A stretch of 64,000 nt of DNA, taken from NCBI GenBank assembly GCA_045604405.1, contig JAZUNZ010000018.1, positions 69,519 to 133,518 on the forward strand. The letters run 5' to 3'. The notes beneath the pieces are model-generated. The model saw nothing but the letters and a program-made list of their open reading frames with translations, did no database searches and was not told where the DNA came from. Each line of letters starts with the position of its first letter. Position 1 is the stretch's first letter. Positions 51,448-61,401 of this stretch are shown in pieces. The position numbers and the translations under genes were made by a program. The DNA comes from Clostridia bacterium. Lineage in GTDB: Bacteria > Bacillota > Clostridia > TANB77 > CAG-465.

Positions 51448-51589
51448 GTTTGCGAAAAATATTTTCTTAGTCAACGTGTATTGTCTCGCAGAGCCCACGA
51501 GTTTTGATAGCATGTCATAACTCATAGGGGAGAACGATTTAGTTAAGTACACTAAAATCATTCTCCCCTTAAAATAAGTCATTTCAATA

Positions 51590-53254
51590 TTAAGCTGTTT
51601 TTTTATTTAATATTTTTTCAATTGTTGTTTCAATATCATTCAAACTAACTGGAAAAGAAATTATACCGACACCTCTATAACATATATCTATTTCCTGAAC
51701 CTTTTTGCCATTTATTTTTTCTGTTTGATGAATTATTATTTTTTCTATTAATTCATTTAAAATTTCTGGTGTTAATTCAGGTATTTCAGTATACTTTCTA
51801 ACATTAGATATAAATTGTGTTAAATCAGTTTCTTTCTTTTCTTTATTTTCTATTTCATTTGATAATTGTTCAATCTTTATTTTTAATTCTTGTTGCTCTT
51901 TATCATAATTAAAAGATAAGTTTCTAAATCTATCATCTGTAAGTTTTCCAGATACATTATCTTCGTAAATATGCTTAAATAAGTTGTCAATTTCAATAAT
52001 TCTTTTTTTCGCTTTTTCAAGTTCTTTTTTGTTTTTAGAAATTTGCCTTAATTCATCTTGCGCAGATTTTGCTAATTGCTCTTTAATAAATAAATCTTCA
52101 TAACTTTTCATATATGAAATTACTTTTTGTATATTTTCTAAAACAAGGCTTTGTAATGCTTCATCTGTAATATAATGAGAAGTACAAGAAGCTCTACTTG
52201 ATTTATAACTTGAACATCTATAATGATCCTTTGCTTTTTTATCACTTACAGGTGATTTGAAATAAAGTTTTTTCCCACAATCATAGCAAAATAGTAATCC
52301 AGAAAAGATGCTCTTTTTACCTGATTTTGCGTATTTTTTTCTATTACCTCGTAGTTGTTTTACAATATTCCAAGTATGTTCATCAATAATTGGCTCATGT
52401 GTATTTTTGAATATTTTTCTATCTTCTTTTGGAAGATAAACTCTAGTTTTATCTTTATAAGAACGAGTGGTAGATTTAAAATTAACAGTATCTCCAATAT
52501 ATTCTTGTCTATCTAAAATACCTGCAACTGTTACAGCATTCCATTGATGTTTTAATTCTTGAGGCTTTGATGATAACTTTATTCCAATACTTGCTGAATA
52601 TTCAGCAGGAGTTAAAATCTCTCTTTCCTTTAAAATTCTTGAAATCTCACAAGTTCCATGACCTTGAATAAATAGATTAAATATTTCTTTTACAATTTCT
52701 GCTGATTGTTCATCTATAATCCATTTTGTTTTATCATTTTCGTCTTTTTTATAACCATAAGGAATGTTATTTGCAAGTGAAATTCCAGATTCGCCTTTAT
52801 TTTTTAGAACTGCTCTAACTTTTTGACTTGTGTTTTTGGCATGCATTTCGTTAAACCAATCTTGAATAGGTAAGAAGTCATTTAAGCCTTTACTACTATC
52901 AATATTGTCCATTATAGCAATATACCTTACATTAAGTCTAACAAAATCTTCTTCTAAAAGTTGTCCAACAACAAGTCTATTTCTACCAAGTCTTGAATGG
53001 TCTTTTACTATTATTGTTCCAATTTTTCCACTTTCTGCAAGTTCCATCATTTCCATAAAAGCAGGTCTTGTAAAATTTGTTCCTGAATATCCATCATCTA
53101 CAAAGAATTTTATATTTTGAAATTTGTTATCTTTTGCATATTTACTTAAAATTGATTTTTGATTTATTATACTATTGCTTTCTCCAGCCATATCATCATC
53201 TCTTGATAAACGGCAGTATAAAGCAGTGATTTTATCGCTTTCTAGCTGTTTCAT
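51590..53254 (-). CDS. large serine recombinase (TnpX-like)
   Basis: N-terminal resolvase catalytic domain ([11 protein letters not shown]), recombinase domain, Cys-rich zinc ribbon (CYDCGKK...CSSYK...C), C-terminal coiled coil. 554 aa. Confidence 0.9.
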
Positions 53255-53364
53255 TATTATCTCCTTTCTCAGACAGCTTGAAACACGATATAAAATTATA
53301 GTTTCTACTTTTGTAGTAGTGATTATAATATACCATAGTCCAAGCTAAAAATCTAATAAAATTT

Positions 53365-53631
53365 TCATTTTCTTAATATTTCAAAAAGAATTTGTAATAT
53401 GGTATATTCGGAGTCCTCATTAAAGTAAGTGTTTACTTTATAAGTTTTACCATTTATTTGTTTTTCAAAGTTTAAATTTTCCTCTGGGCATAAACTTTTA
53501 AAATATTCTATAAGTTCTTCCTTATTCATTTTTGAAAGTTTATGCTTTAGTTCGTTTTTAAGATTTTCTAAAAATTCATATTCTTCATTAGTTAGTTCTA
53601 TTCTGTATATTTTTTCATTATTATCGTTCAT
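53365..53631 (-). CDS. hypothetical protein (88 aa) coupled to the relaxase gene
   Basis: AGGAGGG RBS. Overlaps the mob 3' end by 11 nt. Confidence 0.5.
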
Positions 53632-54907
53632 AACTAGCCCTCCTTTTCTTGTATTCAGGAGAGTTCTTTAGTTTTTGCTTTTCTAATCTTTCTTTTTCTC
53701 GTGCTTCTTCACGAGCTTTTCTTTCAGCTTCTAATTTTTCTTGTTCAATTCTTTGTCGTTCTAATTCATCTTGTTTTTCTTTATCAAATAAAGTTTTAAA
53801 AAAATCAGCAACTCGTTGTGGTGCAAGTTTTATAGCATGGAAGTAGTCTTTTGTTTTTTCTACTAAACCATCATATTTTTCAATCCATTTATTTAAGGTG
53901 TTTCTTAAATTTTCAATTCTAGTATCTCGTTCATAAATTTCTTTATCTGCAACAATACCTTTTTTAGCGTAGTTGACTAAATCTTCATAATCTTGAGGTT
54001 CTAGTTCGATTTTTTTGGAAAATCGTTTATGCTTTCCTAAATCTGATACACCTTTAATTTGCTTATCAAATTTCATAATATTATCAAAAGTAGTTTCTTT
54101 TTCTTCAATTTTGTTTGATATTTCTTTAAGTCTTTCTTTATCCTTTTTTATTTTAAAATCAAGATTTTCAAGATGTTCAGCCGTACTTCCTTTAATACCT
54201 CTTACAAAACCTCTATAATCATTATCAAACATATATTGAAAAAATCTATCTTGTAAAAGACTATATGATTTTATTAAAATAGGTTTTCCTTTTTCATCAT
54301 ATAGAGGATTACCTTGCAAATCTTTGGCTTGTTCAGATTTCCACTTTTTACTATGGCTTACTTGATTTATCACTTCTTTTGTTTTACCAACTAAAGATTT
54401 GTCTTTACATCTTTTTGAATACTTGATTTCTTTTTGAACAACAGGTATTGCAATAACATGCAAATGATAGTGATATATAGGCTTTCCATATTCTTCTGAT
54501 AAGGCAGTATTTAGTTCATCAGCGTGCATAACTGCTGATATAATATTATCACTGCCCATTTCTTTTTCAGCAAAGTGGAAAGCTTTTTCATAAAAGCCTT
54601 TTGCAAATTCATAACCACCATTTTGTTCAAAATAGTCGGAATTAATATCAAATATAATTTCATCAAATACTTTTGCATTATCTTTTAGACCTCTAAGTGA
54701 TATTTCTCCATCATCAATCATTTCTTTTAATCTTTCGTTATAAGTGTTTTTGCATTTTTTGTAATGCACATTGTTTGGTGTTTGAGCTAAGTCAACATTC
54801 ATATTAGAGTAAGATTCGTTTTTCCTTTCATTATGTCTTTCTGCTTTTACAATACTTACTCTAGTATAAGTTTCTACTCTAGCTACCGAATAGTTTGTTT
54901 TTCCCAT
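53621..54907 (-). CDS. MobV-family (Pre/Mob) relaxase, TnpZ-like
   Basis: N-terminal AERHNER (HxxR) and VMHADE...[10 protein letters not shown] (HxDE...H.H) motifs. Lys/Glu-rich coiled-coil C-terminus. Confidence 0.85.
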
Positions 54908-54953
54908 TTAAATATCCTTTCTTGCAGGTAGCAAGAAGCGACCAAAGGGAGCT

Positions 54954-59792: not shown

Positions 59793-60758
59793 ATGGGTGG
59801 TTCTAGTTATGACAGAGACGTTTACGAAGAAAGCTCCAGCTCGGGCTGGGGAAGTTCTTACGGCAGTAGTTTTGGGACAAGTTCTGAATCTGCAAAGAAG
59901 TTTACAAGCACTACTTTGCATAGTTCGATGAATCCCAACGGCAAAATCTTGAAGAGCAACTCTAAGTCACCTATTATCGTAGTGCTTGACGTGACTGGCT
60001 CTAATATTGATTTTGCAAGAGTAGTTTACGACAAATTACCGATGTTTTACGGACAGATTGAGCAGAAAGGTTATCTGGAAGACTTCGAGATTTCTTTCTG
60101 TGCAGTGGGTGATGCATATCACGATGAATATCCGTTGCAGATTGGTGACTTCGCAAAAGGCATTGAGCTTGATTCTTGGCTTGAGAAAGTTGTCCTTGAA
60201 GGTGGCGGTGGTGCATTTGGAGAAGAATCCTATGAGCTTGCTGCATATTATCTGCTTAAAAATGCGGAATTCGAAAAAGGAGCTAAGCCTATTATCTTCT
60301 TTATTGGAGATGAAAAGCCGTATCCTACTGTGGATCGTTCGCAGGCAGAGAAATTTGGAATTGAATTTTTCCAGAGTGTAGAACCTTTTGGAGAGCTTCG
60401 GAAAAAAGTTAATGATAACGTATTTCTGTTGCTTAACAAAGCTTGCGGAAAATACTTCAAAGATGATATCACATCTTGCTGGGAAAAGCTTTTAGCACCT
60501 GAGCACGTGATTAAAATCAGCGAAGAAAAAGCAATTATCGACTTGATGTTGGGAGTTATTTCGATGGTTTCTTCGGCAAGAACTCTTGAAACATACAAAG
60601 TTGATATGCTTGACAGAGGTCAGACACAGGCAAGAATCGAAGGTGTTTCGAAATCCCTTGCAGGATTGTCGACTGCTCTTGTTCCTGTTAAGGTTACTGG
60701 AGCTATTGCAAAAACTGCAAGTGATAAGAAGAGCACTCAGAAAGGAAAAAGACTTTAA
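59793..60758 (+). CDS. von Willebrand factor A (vWA)-like protein with Ser/Gly-rich N-terminus
   Basis: AAGGAGGA RBS. IIVVLDVTGSN (DxTxS MIDAS-like), GGGG...ES, IFFIGDEKP. Called by architecture. Confidence 0.6.
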   Translation: MGGSSYDRDVYEESSSSGWGSSYGSSFGTSSESAKKFTSTTLHSSMNPNGKILKSNSKSPIIVVLDVTGSNIDFARVVYDKLPMFYGQIEQKGYLEDFEISFCAVGDAYHDEYPLQIGDFAKGIELDSWLEKVVLEGGGGAFGEESYELAAYYLLKNAEFEKGAKPIIFFIGDEKPYPTVDRSQAEKFGIEFFQSVEPFGELRKKVNDNVFLLLNKACGKYFKDDITSCWEKLLAPEHVIKISEEKAIIDLMLGVISMVSSARTLETYKVDMLDRGQTQARIEGVSKSLAGLSTALVPVKVTGAIAKTASDKKSTQKGKRL

Positions 60759-60787
60759 TCAAAACAATTATTAATAATTTATGATTA

Positions 60788-60821
60788 GCACAAGGCACAC
60801 TAGATTTAGTGTGCCTTTGTG
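60788..60821. terminator. strong hairpin after the cargo operon
   Basis: GCACAAGGCACACTA-gatt-TAGTGTGCCTTGTGC (15-bp perfect stem), between the convergent vWA and tnpV genes. T tail is weak. Confidence 0.55.
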
Positions 60822-60831
60822 CTTGTAAATT

Positions 60832-61194
60832 CTAATTATAAATATATCTTTCAAAAATTATTTCTTCCACAGAACTTTTTATATTATTCATTTTTTGTAC
60901 CCATTCCAGTTGATTATTAGCTTTTAATTCCTCTGTTATATTTTCTTTTTCTGCAAATTGTTTCATTAAAAGTTCAAATTGCTTTTGACATTCTATATCA
61001 ATATTATATAAATGTTCATCTAATTTATTATCCATAAACAAAATAATATATTCGGCTTTTTTATGATTTTTTAAATAATTCAATCTCATTCTTCCATATT
61101 TACCCAAATGATAATTTTTAAATTTATTTTCTTCAAGCTTTAAGTTTGGTAAATAATAATCTCCAACTTTGTTATATGTAATTTTATTATTCAT
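60832..61194 (-). CDS. tnpV: TnpV-family transposon protein
   Basis: ATG at 61194 follows AGGAGGA. YYLPNL...GKYGRMRLNYL...ITEELKANNQLEWVQKMNNI matches the TnpV pattern of Tn4451-type elements. Confidence 0.7.
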   Translation of the reverse strand: MNNKITYNKVGDYYLPNLKLEENKFKNYHLGKYGRMRLNYLKNHKKAEYIILFMDNKLDEHLYNIDIECQKQFELLMKQFAEKENITEELKANNQLEWVQKMNNIKSSVEEIIFERYIYN

Positions 61195-61401
61195 TTCAAA
61201 AATCCTCCTAAAATTTAATTTCACTACTTTTAGAACTATAAATTTATATCTGTTTTGCTGTCTAAAATTTAAAGTGTACTTAACTTAAGTCTACTGGGTT
61301 AGGACATATGACACAGTCAAAGTCGCTTCTAAAGTATTGAATTTTTAACATAAATATAGTATGATATACACACAATTTAATAATAGAAAGTGGGGATAAG
61401 T

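Follow-up and report, generated by a model that had tools for sequence, protein, structure and literature searches.

Evidence for a Tn4451-family integrative mobilizable element downstream of ssrA, with a GG crossover and an oriT-like target module

Positions 51531–61297 of the window (the whole 64,000-nucleotide stretch of Clostridia DNA that was analysed) very probably form an integrative mobilizable element (IME) 9,767 bp long, which belongs to the Tn4451/TnpX lineage and is present as one integrated copy, with a GG crossover, a presumed mobile life cycle and an oriT-like target. A preliminary description of this DNA had proposed a Tn4451-like element with ends at 51513 and 61313. That interpretation is partly supported, as it is right in kind and wrong on the ends: the true left end lies 17 nt further in, and the true right end 16 nt.

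Gene content, ends and crossover of the element

The insertion junction lies 140 nt past the tmRNA gene and ~78 nt past the ssrA terminator hairpin (at ~51422–51451), rather than the ~65 nt given before. The landmarks and backbone genes are the following.

51032..51389, + strand: ssrA (tmRNA), tag ADNRLAMAA (ARAGORN; Rfam RF00023, 132 bits), a neighbouring landmark outside the element
51531–61297: the IME, 9,767 bp, bounded by GG junctions
51590..53254, − strand: tnpX-like large serine recombinase, 554 aa (Pfam Resolvase, Recombinase, Zn_ribbon_recom and DUF4368)
53365..53631, − strand: tnpW-like gene, 88 aa (Pfam TnpW, PF14202), overlapping the mob stop by 11 nt
53621..54907, − strand: MobV (TnpZ-like) relaxase, 428 aa (Pfam Mob_Pre, 9.1e-36; NCBIfam MobV)
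60832..61224, − strand: tnpV, 130 aa (Pfam TnpV, E=1.4e-38)

The backbone order is tnpV / cargo / oriT-mob-tnpW-tnpX. The recombinase carries the catalytic-Ser motif, and among solved structures the N-terminal domain of TnpX (2mhc_A) is closest to it (E=1.8e-35, ~56% identity over 116 aa), while TP901-1 integrase reaches only 4e-9. The relaxase has the motifs HNER and HADE, and its closest solved relative is MobM of pMV158 (4lvi, E=5.6e-9). The Pfam and NCBIfam domains, together with these solved relatives, support the assignment to the Tn4451 family. The recombinase, MobV relaxase, TnpV, five-gene operon and repeat cores named in the preliminary description are all in the sequence, the cores exactly where it had placed them; the TnpW gene was missing from its gene set. 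The TnpW match barely clears the Pfam cut-off (27 bits versus 25), and the position of tnpW is kept across related elements. tnpV has an internal promoter-like site, TAGACA-18-TATAGT (61264–61235; promoter scan, 10/12).

Where exactly does the element end? The comparison with empty sites, which had been suggested as a check, found eight uninterrupted targets in other genomes, reading ...CTCATAGGGGGTTAGGAC..., and the insertion downstream of ssrA is indeed discrete. One of the eight, in the same genus (G011:C7), is 86% identical over 51365–51530, and the other seven read ATAGGGGGTTAGGA, one of these (L102) being ATAGGGGATTAGGA. Joining the flanks of 26 occupied sites yields the same sequence as the empty sites. 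In both G020 and the window, the two target halves share exactly GG. Because the empty sites have GGGGG, while attL retains four G and attR three, the overlap is exactly 2 nt. The parts of the junctions are listed below.

51480..51528, + strand: left half of the target module (attB arm B), with box TTGTCTCGCAGAGCCCAC, hairpin A, then ATAGG
51529..51530, + strand: crossover dinucleotide GG, attL copy (empty-site comparison)
51531..51568, + strand: element end on the tnpX side (attP arm P′), AGAACGATTT-AGTTAAGTACACT-AAAATCATTCTCCCC, palindromic
61273..61295, + strand: element end on the tnpV side (attP arm P), AGTGTACTTAACT-TAAGTCTACT
61296..61297, + strand: crossover dinucleotide GG, attR copy (empty-site comparison)
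61298..61334, + strand: right half of the target module (attB arm B′), GTTAGGAC..., with hairpin B

Both repeat pairs are centred on GG, as TGTCATA-N9-GG-N9-TATGACA and AGTGTACTTAACT-N10-GG-N10-AGTTAAGTACACT. The TGTCATA/TATGACA pair (cores 51513–51519 and 61307–61313, in the left and right target halves) is target DNA, because it is left behind in empty sites, and the AGTGTACTTAACT/AGTTAAGTACACT pair is element DNA—the attP arms—because it travels with the element. Among the inverted repeats that had been taken to bound the element, the inner AGTTAAGTACACT cores keep this role as attP arms, while the outer TGTCATA cores are attB half-sites. The recombinase thus joined the attP to the chromosomal attB, and the exchange took place at the central GG, which is not palindromic, so that each junction has kept a GG. 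The P′ arm is kept at the tnpX-side end in 64 junctions of related loci, and its palindrome probably also serves as the tnpX terminator. The P arm recurs upstream of tnpV in over 30 related loci, where CC always precedes it (tnpX orientation).

Hairpin A consists of GAGTTTTGA (51499–51507), a loop and TCATAACTC (51515–51523), and hairpin B of AGGACATATGAC (61301–61312) and GTCAAAGTC (61316–61324). The outer flanks CGAGTTTTGA and TCAAAGTCG, previously read as weakly symmetric attB arms, are not simply that; each is one arm of these local hairpins, GAGTTTTGA/TCATAACTC on the left and AGGACATATGAC/GTCAAAGTC on the right, which belong to a conserved oriT-like module.

The target module, the predicted oriT and the proposed life cycle

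What does the family insert into? Most junctions (52/64) fall in one homologous, ~90-nt module with two hairpins, which covary: 94% of positions are paired, and 57 double changes compare with 14.9 in shuffles, none of 500 shuffles being as high. In other genomes, the module is usually flanked by rec2 and mob2, which belong to a second IME family, unrelated to this one. rec2 (the second recombinase gene, encoding a 644-aa serine recombinase) ends 145–225 nt from the module in 21 of ~33 sites, and mob2 (the second relaxase gene) starts 54–65 nt from it in 13 of 18; Mob and mob2 are similar at the motif level only. Intact modules occur within long chromosomal contigs, with rec2 on one side and mob2 on the other; the module is thus an inner part of the rec2/mob2 element and is no junction. 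The window holds an orphan copy, 90 nt after ssrA. Rfam and the other curated models do not recognize the module.

The oriT of pMV158 comprises IR1, 8 nt and a 5′-G/T-3′ nick in TAGTGTG/TTATAC, with the mob promoter embedded (PMC5863519). The module has this pMV158-type/MOBV1 layout—a hairpin, the 8 nt ATAGGGGG, then TT, with a predicted G/T nick—and its motif ATAGKGGG/TTA and spacing match both the pMV158 oriT and the relaxase-proximal region of the element itself. The crossover sits 1 nt upstream of the predicted nick of the module. Given this layout and the usual rec2/mob2 setting, the family probably targets the origin of transfer of another element; the oriT assignment of the module and the nick sites are based on position, architecture and the resemblance to pMV158. 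The module could instead be the attachment site of the 644-aa recombinase, or the operator or 5′ leader of mob2, since it lies between the two genes and is palindromic, like recombinase and repressor sites. This is possible, but we doubt it: the internal location speaks against an attachment site, the hairpin, the 8-nt spacing and the motif fit pMV158 and the IME's own region, and pMV158 itself has an oriT that overlaps the mob promoter/operator.

The element also has a candidate origin of its own.

54953..55040, − strand: predicted oriT of the element (sequence; family conservation)

It consists of a box CTCCGCTAGGAGCCCACGA, a hairpin CTTTGCAAAAC-GAA-GTTTTGAAAG, the nick-like TGTCATAGTGGG/TTACATAC and a hairpin GTTACATACTTTC-GAA-GAAAGTTATGTAAC, and resembles the pMV158 nick region (PMC5863519). 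Its core recurs in 52 of 81 related loci, one of them an IncHI2 plasmid copy, and the hairpins show compensatory changes. A promoter-like TTGAAA-16-CATACT (55001–54974; promoter scan) overlaps this oriT. mob-tnpW-tnpX is probably one operon with its promoter inside the oriT, as in pMV158, and the recombinase could then be expressed without the joint-formed promoter that Tn4451 needs.

We propose the following life cycle. TnpX would cut the element out as a circle, its joint reading ...GTTCT-CC-AGTAG..., and the MobV relaxase would nick the element's own oriT at the predicted CATAGTGGG/TTACATAC (54983/54982, minus strand). A conjugative element would move the strand in trans, and TnpX would re-insert the element after transfer, preferentially into what appears to be the MOBV1-oriT-like module of the second IME family.

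Cargo, family and alternative readings

The cargo is a nucleotide-enzyme/kinase cassette in place of a resistance gene, in agreement with the non-resistance operon described earlier at 55775–60758.

55555..60820, + strand: cargo cassette, five genes (Pfam/NCBIfam/PADLOC)
55775–56674, + strand: gene 1, PK-barrel-like
56613/56667–58127, + strand: gene 2, PurA-like
58132–58746, + strand: gene 3, Udk/PRK-like
58727–59779, + strand: gene 4, J-domain and Ser/Thr-kinase-like
59793–60758, + strand: gene 5, 321-aa protein without a recognised family
~60788–60822: terminator hairpin of the cargo

It has its own promoter-like site (55559–55587), and the backbone homology with 31 other elements ends at ~55560 and ~60826. 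The cargo slot, from the tnpV stop to ~55560, holds a self-contained five-gene cassette that is also found outside such elements: L110 has the same 5.27-kb block with the same limits (82.9% nt identity) and no IME backbone, and L080 carries this block as cargo.

The backbone TnpV-cargo-Mob-TnpW-TnpX is common to 80 related loci, and the cargo is hypervariable (~70 protein clusters among 32 elements). This cargo-swapping family is large and occurs in uncultured gut Clostridia; the related loci are all metagenome-assembled genomes, so some contexts may be mis-binned. The related elements are 5.5–10.3 kb long, and in a 929-bp derivative all that is left is the ends, the truncated start of tnpV, the oriT and one small open reading frame. 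The element is of horizontal origin, and the best relative among 60 neighbours (91%) is found in another family. None of 12 congeners carries the element, so its acquisition is recent on the species scale.

Three other readings of the block have to be weighed. Terminal inverted repeats of 41 nt starting at TGTCATA, with attB arms further out, would give an element at 51513–61313. The repeat (51513–51553 / 61273–61313, 71% complementary) is real and is the longest of the region, but the outer 17 and 16 nt remain in the chromosome, directly joined as TGTCAWAACTCATAGGGGGTTAGGACWTATGACA, in eight empty sites, and at 12 secondary sites the flanks diverge directly after CC/GG, not 16–17 nt beyond. 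These boundaries are rejected, and we give the reading almost no credence. A piece of a larger prophage or genomic island with a phage-type integrase is also highly improbable. Islands classically insert at ssrA, the interval 51390–63035 as a whole differs from the closest relatives, and orphan modules lie at a constant 128–159 nt from tRNA/tmRNA genes in several genomes, which hints at an older tRNA-targeting island beneath. However, the block lacks genes for phage structure or lysis, the 9.77-kb unit turns up as a discrete module with identical ends at 80 loci in differing contexts, the recombinase is nearest to TnpX and not to phage integrases, and the other non-core DNA is only ~1.9 kb, without an integrase. 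Neither prophage membership nor fixed chromosomal content, in view of the empty sites, fits the block.

An immobile relic of the Tn4451 family, integrated once and now lacking a helper or excision, is unlikely, although less so. The element is single-copy in its genome, tnpX is frameshifted in the relatives L077, L078 and L080, and a search of the 51 contigs recognized no conjugative helper and no clear VirB4; a lone T4CP-like gene is surrounded by housekeeping genes. In contrast, none of the four backbone genes is disrupted, the oriT core agrees with the family consensus, as do both att arms, the absence from congeners points to recent acquisition, and helpers may be transient or unassembled in a genome of 51 contigs. 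We favour the mobilizable element.

Comparison with known systems

In the gene order of Tn4451, the joint is upstream of tnpX, and its TnpX has about 707 aa. Here, the recombinase has 554 aa, and tnpX comes last and stops 60 nt short of the junction. This places the joint between tnpX and tnpV, where it cannot provide a promoter for tnpX. Such a promoter is formed by the joint of Tn4451, according to Lyras & Rood 2000 as cited in PMC9765467. Tn4451 and Tn4453 (C. perfringens / C. difficile) are mobilizable transposons with TnpX, TnpV, CatP, TnpY, TnpZ and TnpW. Our element shares with them the TnpX-type large serine recombinase, TnpV and TnpW homologues, a MobV/Mob_Pre relaxase with a hairpin-rich region upstream, a 2-bp crossover with the same dinucleotide at both ends, and the lack of its own conjugation machinery (PMC5704250, PMC3158075). 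It differs in the crossover (GG, against GA), the missing tnpY, the five-gene cassette in place of catP, and the high target specificity, which is low in Tn4451 (PMC5704250). The label Tn4451-like therefore holds for the kind of element but not as equivalence, as the layout at the joint, the dinucleotide, tnpY and the specificity differ.

Tn6104, Tn6105 and Tn6106 of C. difficile R20291 (Brouwer et al. 2011, PMC3158075), compared by description, likewise have a TnpX-related serine recombinase, a TnpV homologue, a mobilisation gene and accessory genes other than resistance; Tn6106 has its recombinase at the right end, and Tn6104 has a 2-bp direct repeat. They are carried within the conjugative transposon Tn6103 rather than an oriT-like module by ssrA, and their cargo is unrelated. 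If the module is an oriT, the element behaves like the small IME_oriT-type elements of Streptococcus agalactiae, which integrate in the nic site of ICE oriTs (PMC5704250): it specifically enters another element's origin of transfer, in the nick site or beside it. Those use tyrosine integrases and ICE oriTs, whereas here a large serine recombinase would use the MOBV-type oriT that another IME carries, or orphan copies of it.

pMV158, with the MOBV1 prototype MobM, is a plasmid, while this element is integrated. Their relaxase domains are similar, and the pMV158 nick resembles the predicted nicks of the element and of the target (CATAGGGGG/TTAGGAC) at the motif level only. IncHI2 plasmids of Enterobacteriaceae (e.g. 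pD610-HI2, NZ_MG288680) carry the same order of TnpV, opposite-strand cargo, Mob, TnpW and DUF4368 recombinase, with 79.6% nt identity over oriT-mob-tnpW-tnpX and a shared oriT core. Their recombinase is just 63.5% identical, the terminal arms are different (AAGGAGTACTTTTCAATAA...TTATTGAAAGTACTCCTT), the insertion sites of this subgroup are varied, and aac(6')-Ie-aph(2'')-Ia and a GNAT gene make up the cargo.

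Gene content and ends of the element

The integrative mobilizable element (IME) downstream of ssrA consists of a Tn4451-type backbone and a cargo cassette inserted between tnpV and the relaxase gene mob.

51032-51389: ssrA, followed by a terminator hairpin at about 51422-51451
51590-53254, minus strand: tnpX-like large serine recombinase, 554 aa (Resolvase, Recombinase, Zn_ribbon_recom and DUF4368 domains)
53365-53631, minus strand: tnpW-like gene, 88 aa (PF14202, marginal at 27 bits against a cut-off of 25)
53621-54907, minus strand: MobV/Mob_Pre relaxase (mob), 428 aa (Mob_Pre, 9.1e-36)
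55555-60820, plus strand: five-gene cargo, 5.27 kb, a self-contained cassette bearing a promoter-like site and a terminator of its own
60832-61224, minus strand: tnpV, 130 aa (PF14198, 1.4e-38)

The domains of the TnpX/TnpV/MobV backbone confirm the Tn4451-type assignment made in the preliminary description. The top PDB match of the recombinase is the N-terminal catalytic domain of TnpX (2mhc_A, E=1.8e-35, about 56% identity), whereas the second-best solved match, the TP901-1 integrase, reaches 4e-9. In addition, a domain search detected no phage structural, lysis or replication genes between the junctions. The recombinase is thus nearer to TnpX than to phage integrases, and the element is not a prophage. 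The relaxase resembles MobM of pMV158 (4lvi) and retains the HxxR and HxDE motifs, and a conserved hairpin with a nick-like core, 46-133 nt upstream of mob, constitutes the predicted oriT. The positions of TnpV and TnpW are kept across 30 or more loci. The tnpY gene was not found in the tnpV-mob interval, which holds just the five cargo genes and no extra backbone ORF.

Where exactly does the element end? The two window flanks were found contiguous in none of the 40 relatives covered by a joined-flank search, because the DNA downstream of ssrA is unconserved in the genus. The first empty site was located through a partial match that crosses the junction by 8 nt, on contig C7 of the congeneric genome G011. 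This match spans from a tRNA-like 3′ end to beyond the left boundary originally assigned to the element, and the site reads ...GAGTTTTGATAGCATGTCAAAACTCATAGGGGGTTAGGACTTATGACAGAGTCAAAGTCC..., which equals the window left flank to 51530 joined to the right flank from 61296. Seven more uninterrupted sites in other genomes read ATAGGGGGTTAGGA, save one (locus L102), which reads ATAGGGGATTAGGA; the empty site predicted for the window locus is ...TCATAACTCATAGGGGGTTAGGACATATGACA.... The tnpX-side junction, attL, contains four G and the opposite junction, attR, three, while the empty sites carry GGGGG, the sum of the two minus 2. Therefore, the overlap is exactly GG (51529-51530 and 61296-61297), and the element, counted with one GG, spans 51531-61297 (9,767 bp). 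At the occupied site of a neighbouring genome, G020, the halves overlap by exactly the same two bases, and the flanks of 26 occupied sites, once joined, restore the empty-site sequence. In the loci at other sites, the flank divergence starts directly outside CC/GG. All 64 close-subgroup junctions, like those of the window, have the dinucleotide GG (CC on the tnpX strand).

The sites of large serine recombinases, attB and attP, are dissimilar, imperfect inverted half-sites around a non-palindromic dinucleotide, with attP being the longer. Judged from their sequences, the att sites of the window conform to this standard architecture: attB is TGTCATA-N9-GG-N9-TATGACA, attP is AGTGTACTTAACT-N10-GG-N10-AGTTAAGTACACT, and the identity between them is confined to GG. 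The empty sites and the secondary-site flanks identify the TGTCATA cores as attB half-sites and the AGTTAAGTACACT cores as attP half-sites. Both cores lie where the preliminary description had placed them and form the longest inverted repeat of the region. Its view that inverted repeats bound the block holds insofar as the repeats are real, but the ends were misplaced by 16-17 nt on each side, and the TGTCATA repeats are not the termini of the element, since they are left behind in the empty sites. Two other crossover dinucleotides were considered. GA, the Tn4451 crossover, occurs near both ends but was rejected, as it makes the att sites asymmetric and conflicts with the empty sites; these also rule out CA, immediately outside TGTCATA.

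These uninterrupted sites also bear on the question of whether the block is an insertion, as had been supposed, or fixed chromosomal content. The element is present in one copy in its own genome, none of the 12 other species in the genus has it, and the three closest relatives possess ssrA without the element. This distribution rules out fixed chromosomal content. Relatives occur in just 3 of 60 neighbouring genomes, and the nearest (91%) belongs to another family.

The target module

How does the element family select its insertion site? Among the 64 tnpX-side junctions, 52 lie in one homologous module of about 90 nt, and 12 are at secondary sites. The module consensus is TTGCCTCGCAGAGCCCCC-GAGTTWTGA-N7-TCAWAACTC-ATAGG-GG-GTTAGGACTTATGAC-N3-GTCAAAGTCCT-GTGCTACGAAG. 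Both of its hairpins covary: 94% of cells are paired, as compared to 31-50% in slid controls, and 57 double-change cells were counted versus 14.9 in shuffles, none of which (0/500) reached 57. Rfam contains no RNA family matching the module, as searched with the empty site, two loci and the whole window, and the module is present in only 8 of 61 neighbouring genomes.

The module is mostly located between the 3′ end of rec2, encoding a 644-aa large serine recombinase that is 23% identical to TnpX, and the start of mob2, encoding a 465-aa MobV relaxase; both genes belong to a second, unrelated IME family. This arrangement is seen at occupied and empty modules alike; in 13 of 18 sites, the distance between the crossover and the mob2 start is 54-65 nt. 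The second IME-like family, with the gene order serine recombinase, two-hairpin module and Mob_Pre relaxase, is exemplified by L063:11909-13843 (rec2) and L063:1826-3223 (mob2) and also occurs in L098, L099, L103 and L106; its arrangement is kept in variants down to 35% (rec2) and 50% (mob2) identity.

In the oriT of pMV158, the G/T nick within TAGTGTG/TTATAC is preceded by IR1 at a distance of 8 nt, and the region also contains the mob promoter (PMC5863519). The module, TCAAAACTC + ATAGGGGG/TTAGGAC, has the matching layout next to a MobV relaxase gene: a hairpin, the 8 nt ATAGGGGG and then TT, with the same G/T step. The copy in the window has this layout without a neighbouring relaxase gene. 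Furthermore, the region upstream of the element's own mob contains, in this order, a CTCGCAGAGCCC-like box, a hairpin, CATAGTGGG/TTACATAC and a second hairpin starting from GTTA. This block order recurs, with compensatory changes, in 52 of 81 loci, and the module shares it; a MAFFT alignment of the own oriT with the modules was not useful, and the correspondence was drawn by eye from the shared blocks. The pMV158-like layout, the proximity of the MobV gene and the shared block order together suggest that the module is, more likely than not, the oriT of the second IME family. The crossover GG then probably lies 1 nt upstream of the predicted nick, and insertion probably parts the relaxase-binding hairpin from the nick and mob2. 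Targeting of an oriT has a known precedent in S. agalactiae, whose IME_oriT elements use a tyrosine integrase (PMC5704250).

The window, G011:C7 and about ten further loci have orphan modules, with neither rec2 nor mob2, at a nearly constant distance of 128-159 nt downstream from a tRNA or tmRNA gene. This position suggests that the orphan module rides on, or is the remnant of, another tRNA-associated element, and the region resembles one end of an island family that targets tRNA/tmRNA genes. The orphan modules (window 51365-51528; L013 4950-5170; L025, L028, L036, L040, L041, L048, L050, L062 and L073) follow Leu, Thr, Met or Tyr tRNA genes or tmRNA genes, with a similar terminator in between. 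The G011 counterpart of this stretch comes after a tRNA-like 3′ fragment and is on a different contig from ssrA, and several relatives have multiple matches to window 51362-51462. As for the secondary sites, four loci in different genomes (L023, L026, L034 and L043) have one insertion site in common, with the flank CATTCAATYTTAGAAY...; therefore, at least one alternative attB is used recurrently.

Cargo exchange and spread of the family

Relatives of the recombinase numbered 219 in a scan that covered one genome for each prokaryotic species. We examined 80 loci for comparison, all from metagenome-assembled genomes of uncultured Clostridia, mostly from gut and rumen. Every locus with enough sequence has the order tnpV, cargo, mob, tnpW and tnpX, and complete elements span 5.5-10.3 kb. 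The backbone homology to the window ends at about 60826 and about 55560 (or 55158), which delimits the cargo slot. Its content is hypervariable, with about 70 protein clusters across 32 elements, including PD-(D/E)XK nucleases, KilA-N and Bro-N proteins, NUDIX, HAD and radical-SAM enzymes, an ABC transporter pair, a class II aminoacyl-tRNA synthetase, a GNAT-RibD_C fusion and an SMC-like ATPase.

In the window, as previously proposed, five genes take the place of a resistance gene. All are on the plus strand, none is a resistance gene, and they encode a PK-barrel-like protein, a PurA-like protein, a Udk/PRK-like protein, a J-domain + Ser/Thr-kinase-like protein and a 321-aa protein without a known family. 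The PurA-like gene as called from 56613 overlaps the PK-like gene by 62 nt (56613-56674); its start is probably the ATG at 56667, with an 8-nt overlap, because the homologues are typically 486 aa. The same five-gene cargo (78-93% aa identity) is held by locus L080, where the recombinase match is 78% identical and the tnpX frame is split. On a metagenomic contig, L110, the cassette occurs with the same limits and 82.9% nucleotide identity, free of any IME backbone, and backbone-free copies elsewhere in chromosomes preserve both the five genes and their order, the identity of the PurA-like protein falling to as little as 49%. PADLOC returned generic kinase matches for the J-domain kinase-like protein (PD-T4-6, MkoA and MAD6 kinase domains) and none for the other four genes, and therefore no defence system is assignable to the cargo. 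Close homologues of the PurA-like protein were found neither in cultured phages (all <30% identity) nor in IMG/VR by peptide patterns.

The 12-nt direct repeat ATTAGCACAAGG occurs within the cassette limits at 55754-55765, over the RBS of the first cargo gene, and at 60784-60795, at the foot of the cassette terminator hairpin. The terminator downstream of ssrA (window 51412-51455) matches L110:7801-7843 with 93% identity over 44 nt, about 70 nt upstream of the backbone-free cassette, and may be a dispersed repeat in these genomes.

In the close subgroup, the recombinase is about 80% identical to the window TnpX. A second subgroup, at about 64% recombinase identity, differs in its terminal arms and is inserted at varied sites. 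One of its copies resides on IncHI2 plasmids of Klebsiella, Citrobacter, Enterobacter and Salmonella, with the aminoglycoside-resistance gene aac(6')-Ie-aph(2'')-Ia among its cargo; a Clostridia-type IME backbone has therefore moved into Enterobacteriaceae. In L017 (NZ_MG288680, pD610-HI2; 3168-10671) and four similar plasmids, the backbone is 79.6% identical at the nucleotide level over oriT-mob-tnpW-tnpX. At the other extreme of size, L079:20201-21131 is a 929-bp derivative in which the two att arms, the oriT core, a truncated start of tnpV and a single small ORF on the minus strand are retained. It has no mob, tnpW or tnpX and occupies a primary site adjoining mob2; this miniature is presumably moved in trans.

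Comparison with Tn4451 and proposed mechanism

The element shares four defining features with Tn4451/Tn4453: a TnpX-type recombinase, a TnpZ-type relaxase with an upstream predicted oriT, TnpV together with TnpW, and a 2-bp sequence found at either end of the element and a single time in the empty site. It departs from Tn4451 proper in five. The dinucleotide is GG instead of GA, and tnpY, which Tn4451 has, is missing. In Tn4451, tnpX lies next to the joint, and its promoter is reportedly formed at the circular joint; in contrast, the 3′ end of tnpX points at the junction here (stop 51590, junction 51530), tnpV and an internal promoter-like site are at the other junction, and the promoter-like sites are joint-independent. 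Tn4451-type elements are mostly known as antibiotic-resistance carriers in clostridia, whereas this element bears an enzyme/kinase cassette. Finally, Tn4451 exhibits low target-site specificity (PMC5704250), unlike the present family with its prevailing module. The layout of Tn6106-like elements is nearer to that of the element than Tn4451's is, and the element is best filed as a novel variant in the TnpX/TnpV/TnpW/MobV lineage.

The gene set, the att sites, the 2-bp exchange, the insertion relative to empty sites and the modular cargo are observed, and the steps of movement are inferred from Tn4451 biology (PMC5704250, PMC3158075) and pMV158 (PMC5863519). TnpX alone would excise and integrate the element via a circular intermediate, with the predicted joint ...TAACTAAATCGTTCT-CC-AGTAGACTTAAGTTAAG.... 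The mob, tnpW and tnpX genes would be co-transcribed from the promoter-like site overlapping oriT (55001-54974), and tnpV would be expressed from its own promoter-like site (61264-61235). Mob would nick the element's oriT on the minus strand at 54983|54982; the predicted nicks fall after ...ATAGTGGG in the own oriT and after ...ATAGGGGG in the module. A helper conjugative element would supply the mating pore. None is evident in the own 51-contig assembly, which has only a lone coupling-protein-like gene. This gene (G000:C35:54380-56368) encodes a 662-aa TraG/VirD4-like protein (PF02534, 2.4e-81) and stands alone among housekeeping genes, with SpoIID-like, FtsH, TilS and DnaB neighbours and no other conjugation genes nearby.

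A tentative joint reading, which we hold to be somewhat short of probable, is that the IME family is a hyperparasite whose recombinase evolved to recognise a MOBV-type oriT, with the crossover 1 nt from the nick. Insertion would part the relaxase-binding hairpin of the rival IME from the nick and its relaxase gene, and would thereby disable or capture the rival's transfer while bringing in a paralogous oriT. The orphan modules downstream of tRNA/tmRNA genes would serve as chromosomal landing pads, and an open-ended cargo set, here the PurA-like, PK-like and Udk-like enzymes and the J-domain kinase-like protein, would be shuttled among small-genome gut Clostridia.

The locus and its 80 relatives present the lineage as a general cargo-swapping platform in uncultured gut Clostridia, with precisely definable att sites and miniature non-autonomous derivatives. 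To our knowledge, its strong preference for one target has so far been undescribed. If the target is the oriT of another element, then the family would be the serine-recombinase counterpart of the streptococcal oriT-targeting IMEs and a clear case of mobile-element competition or hitch-hiking. The attP/attB pair with its GG core is a candidate new site-specific integration system, and the cassette is of separate interest as a portable, conserved five-gene unit.

The patch next to ssrA is small, variable and defence/TA-like. The interval from the element to the conserved APH-like gene (63036-63983) contains a 195-aa ORF without a family and a MazF/PemK-like toxin gene, and the features to the right of the element are at window 61390-61977, 62341-62820 and 62881-62943. 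A 63-nt stretch is 89% identical to one in G011:C7; there, a ToxN gene follows about 700 nt downstream, and an 84-aa ORF lies at a distance of about 50 nt.
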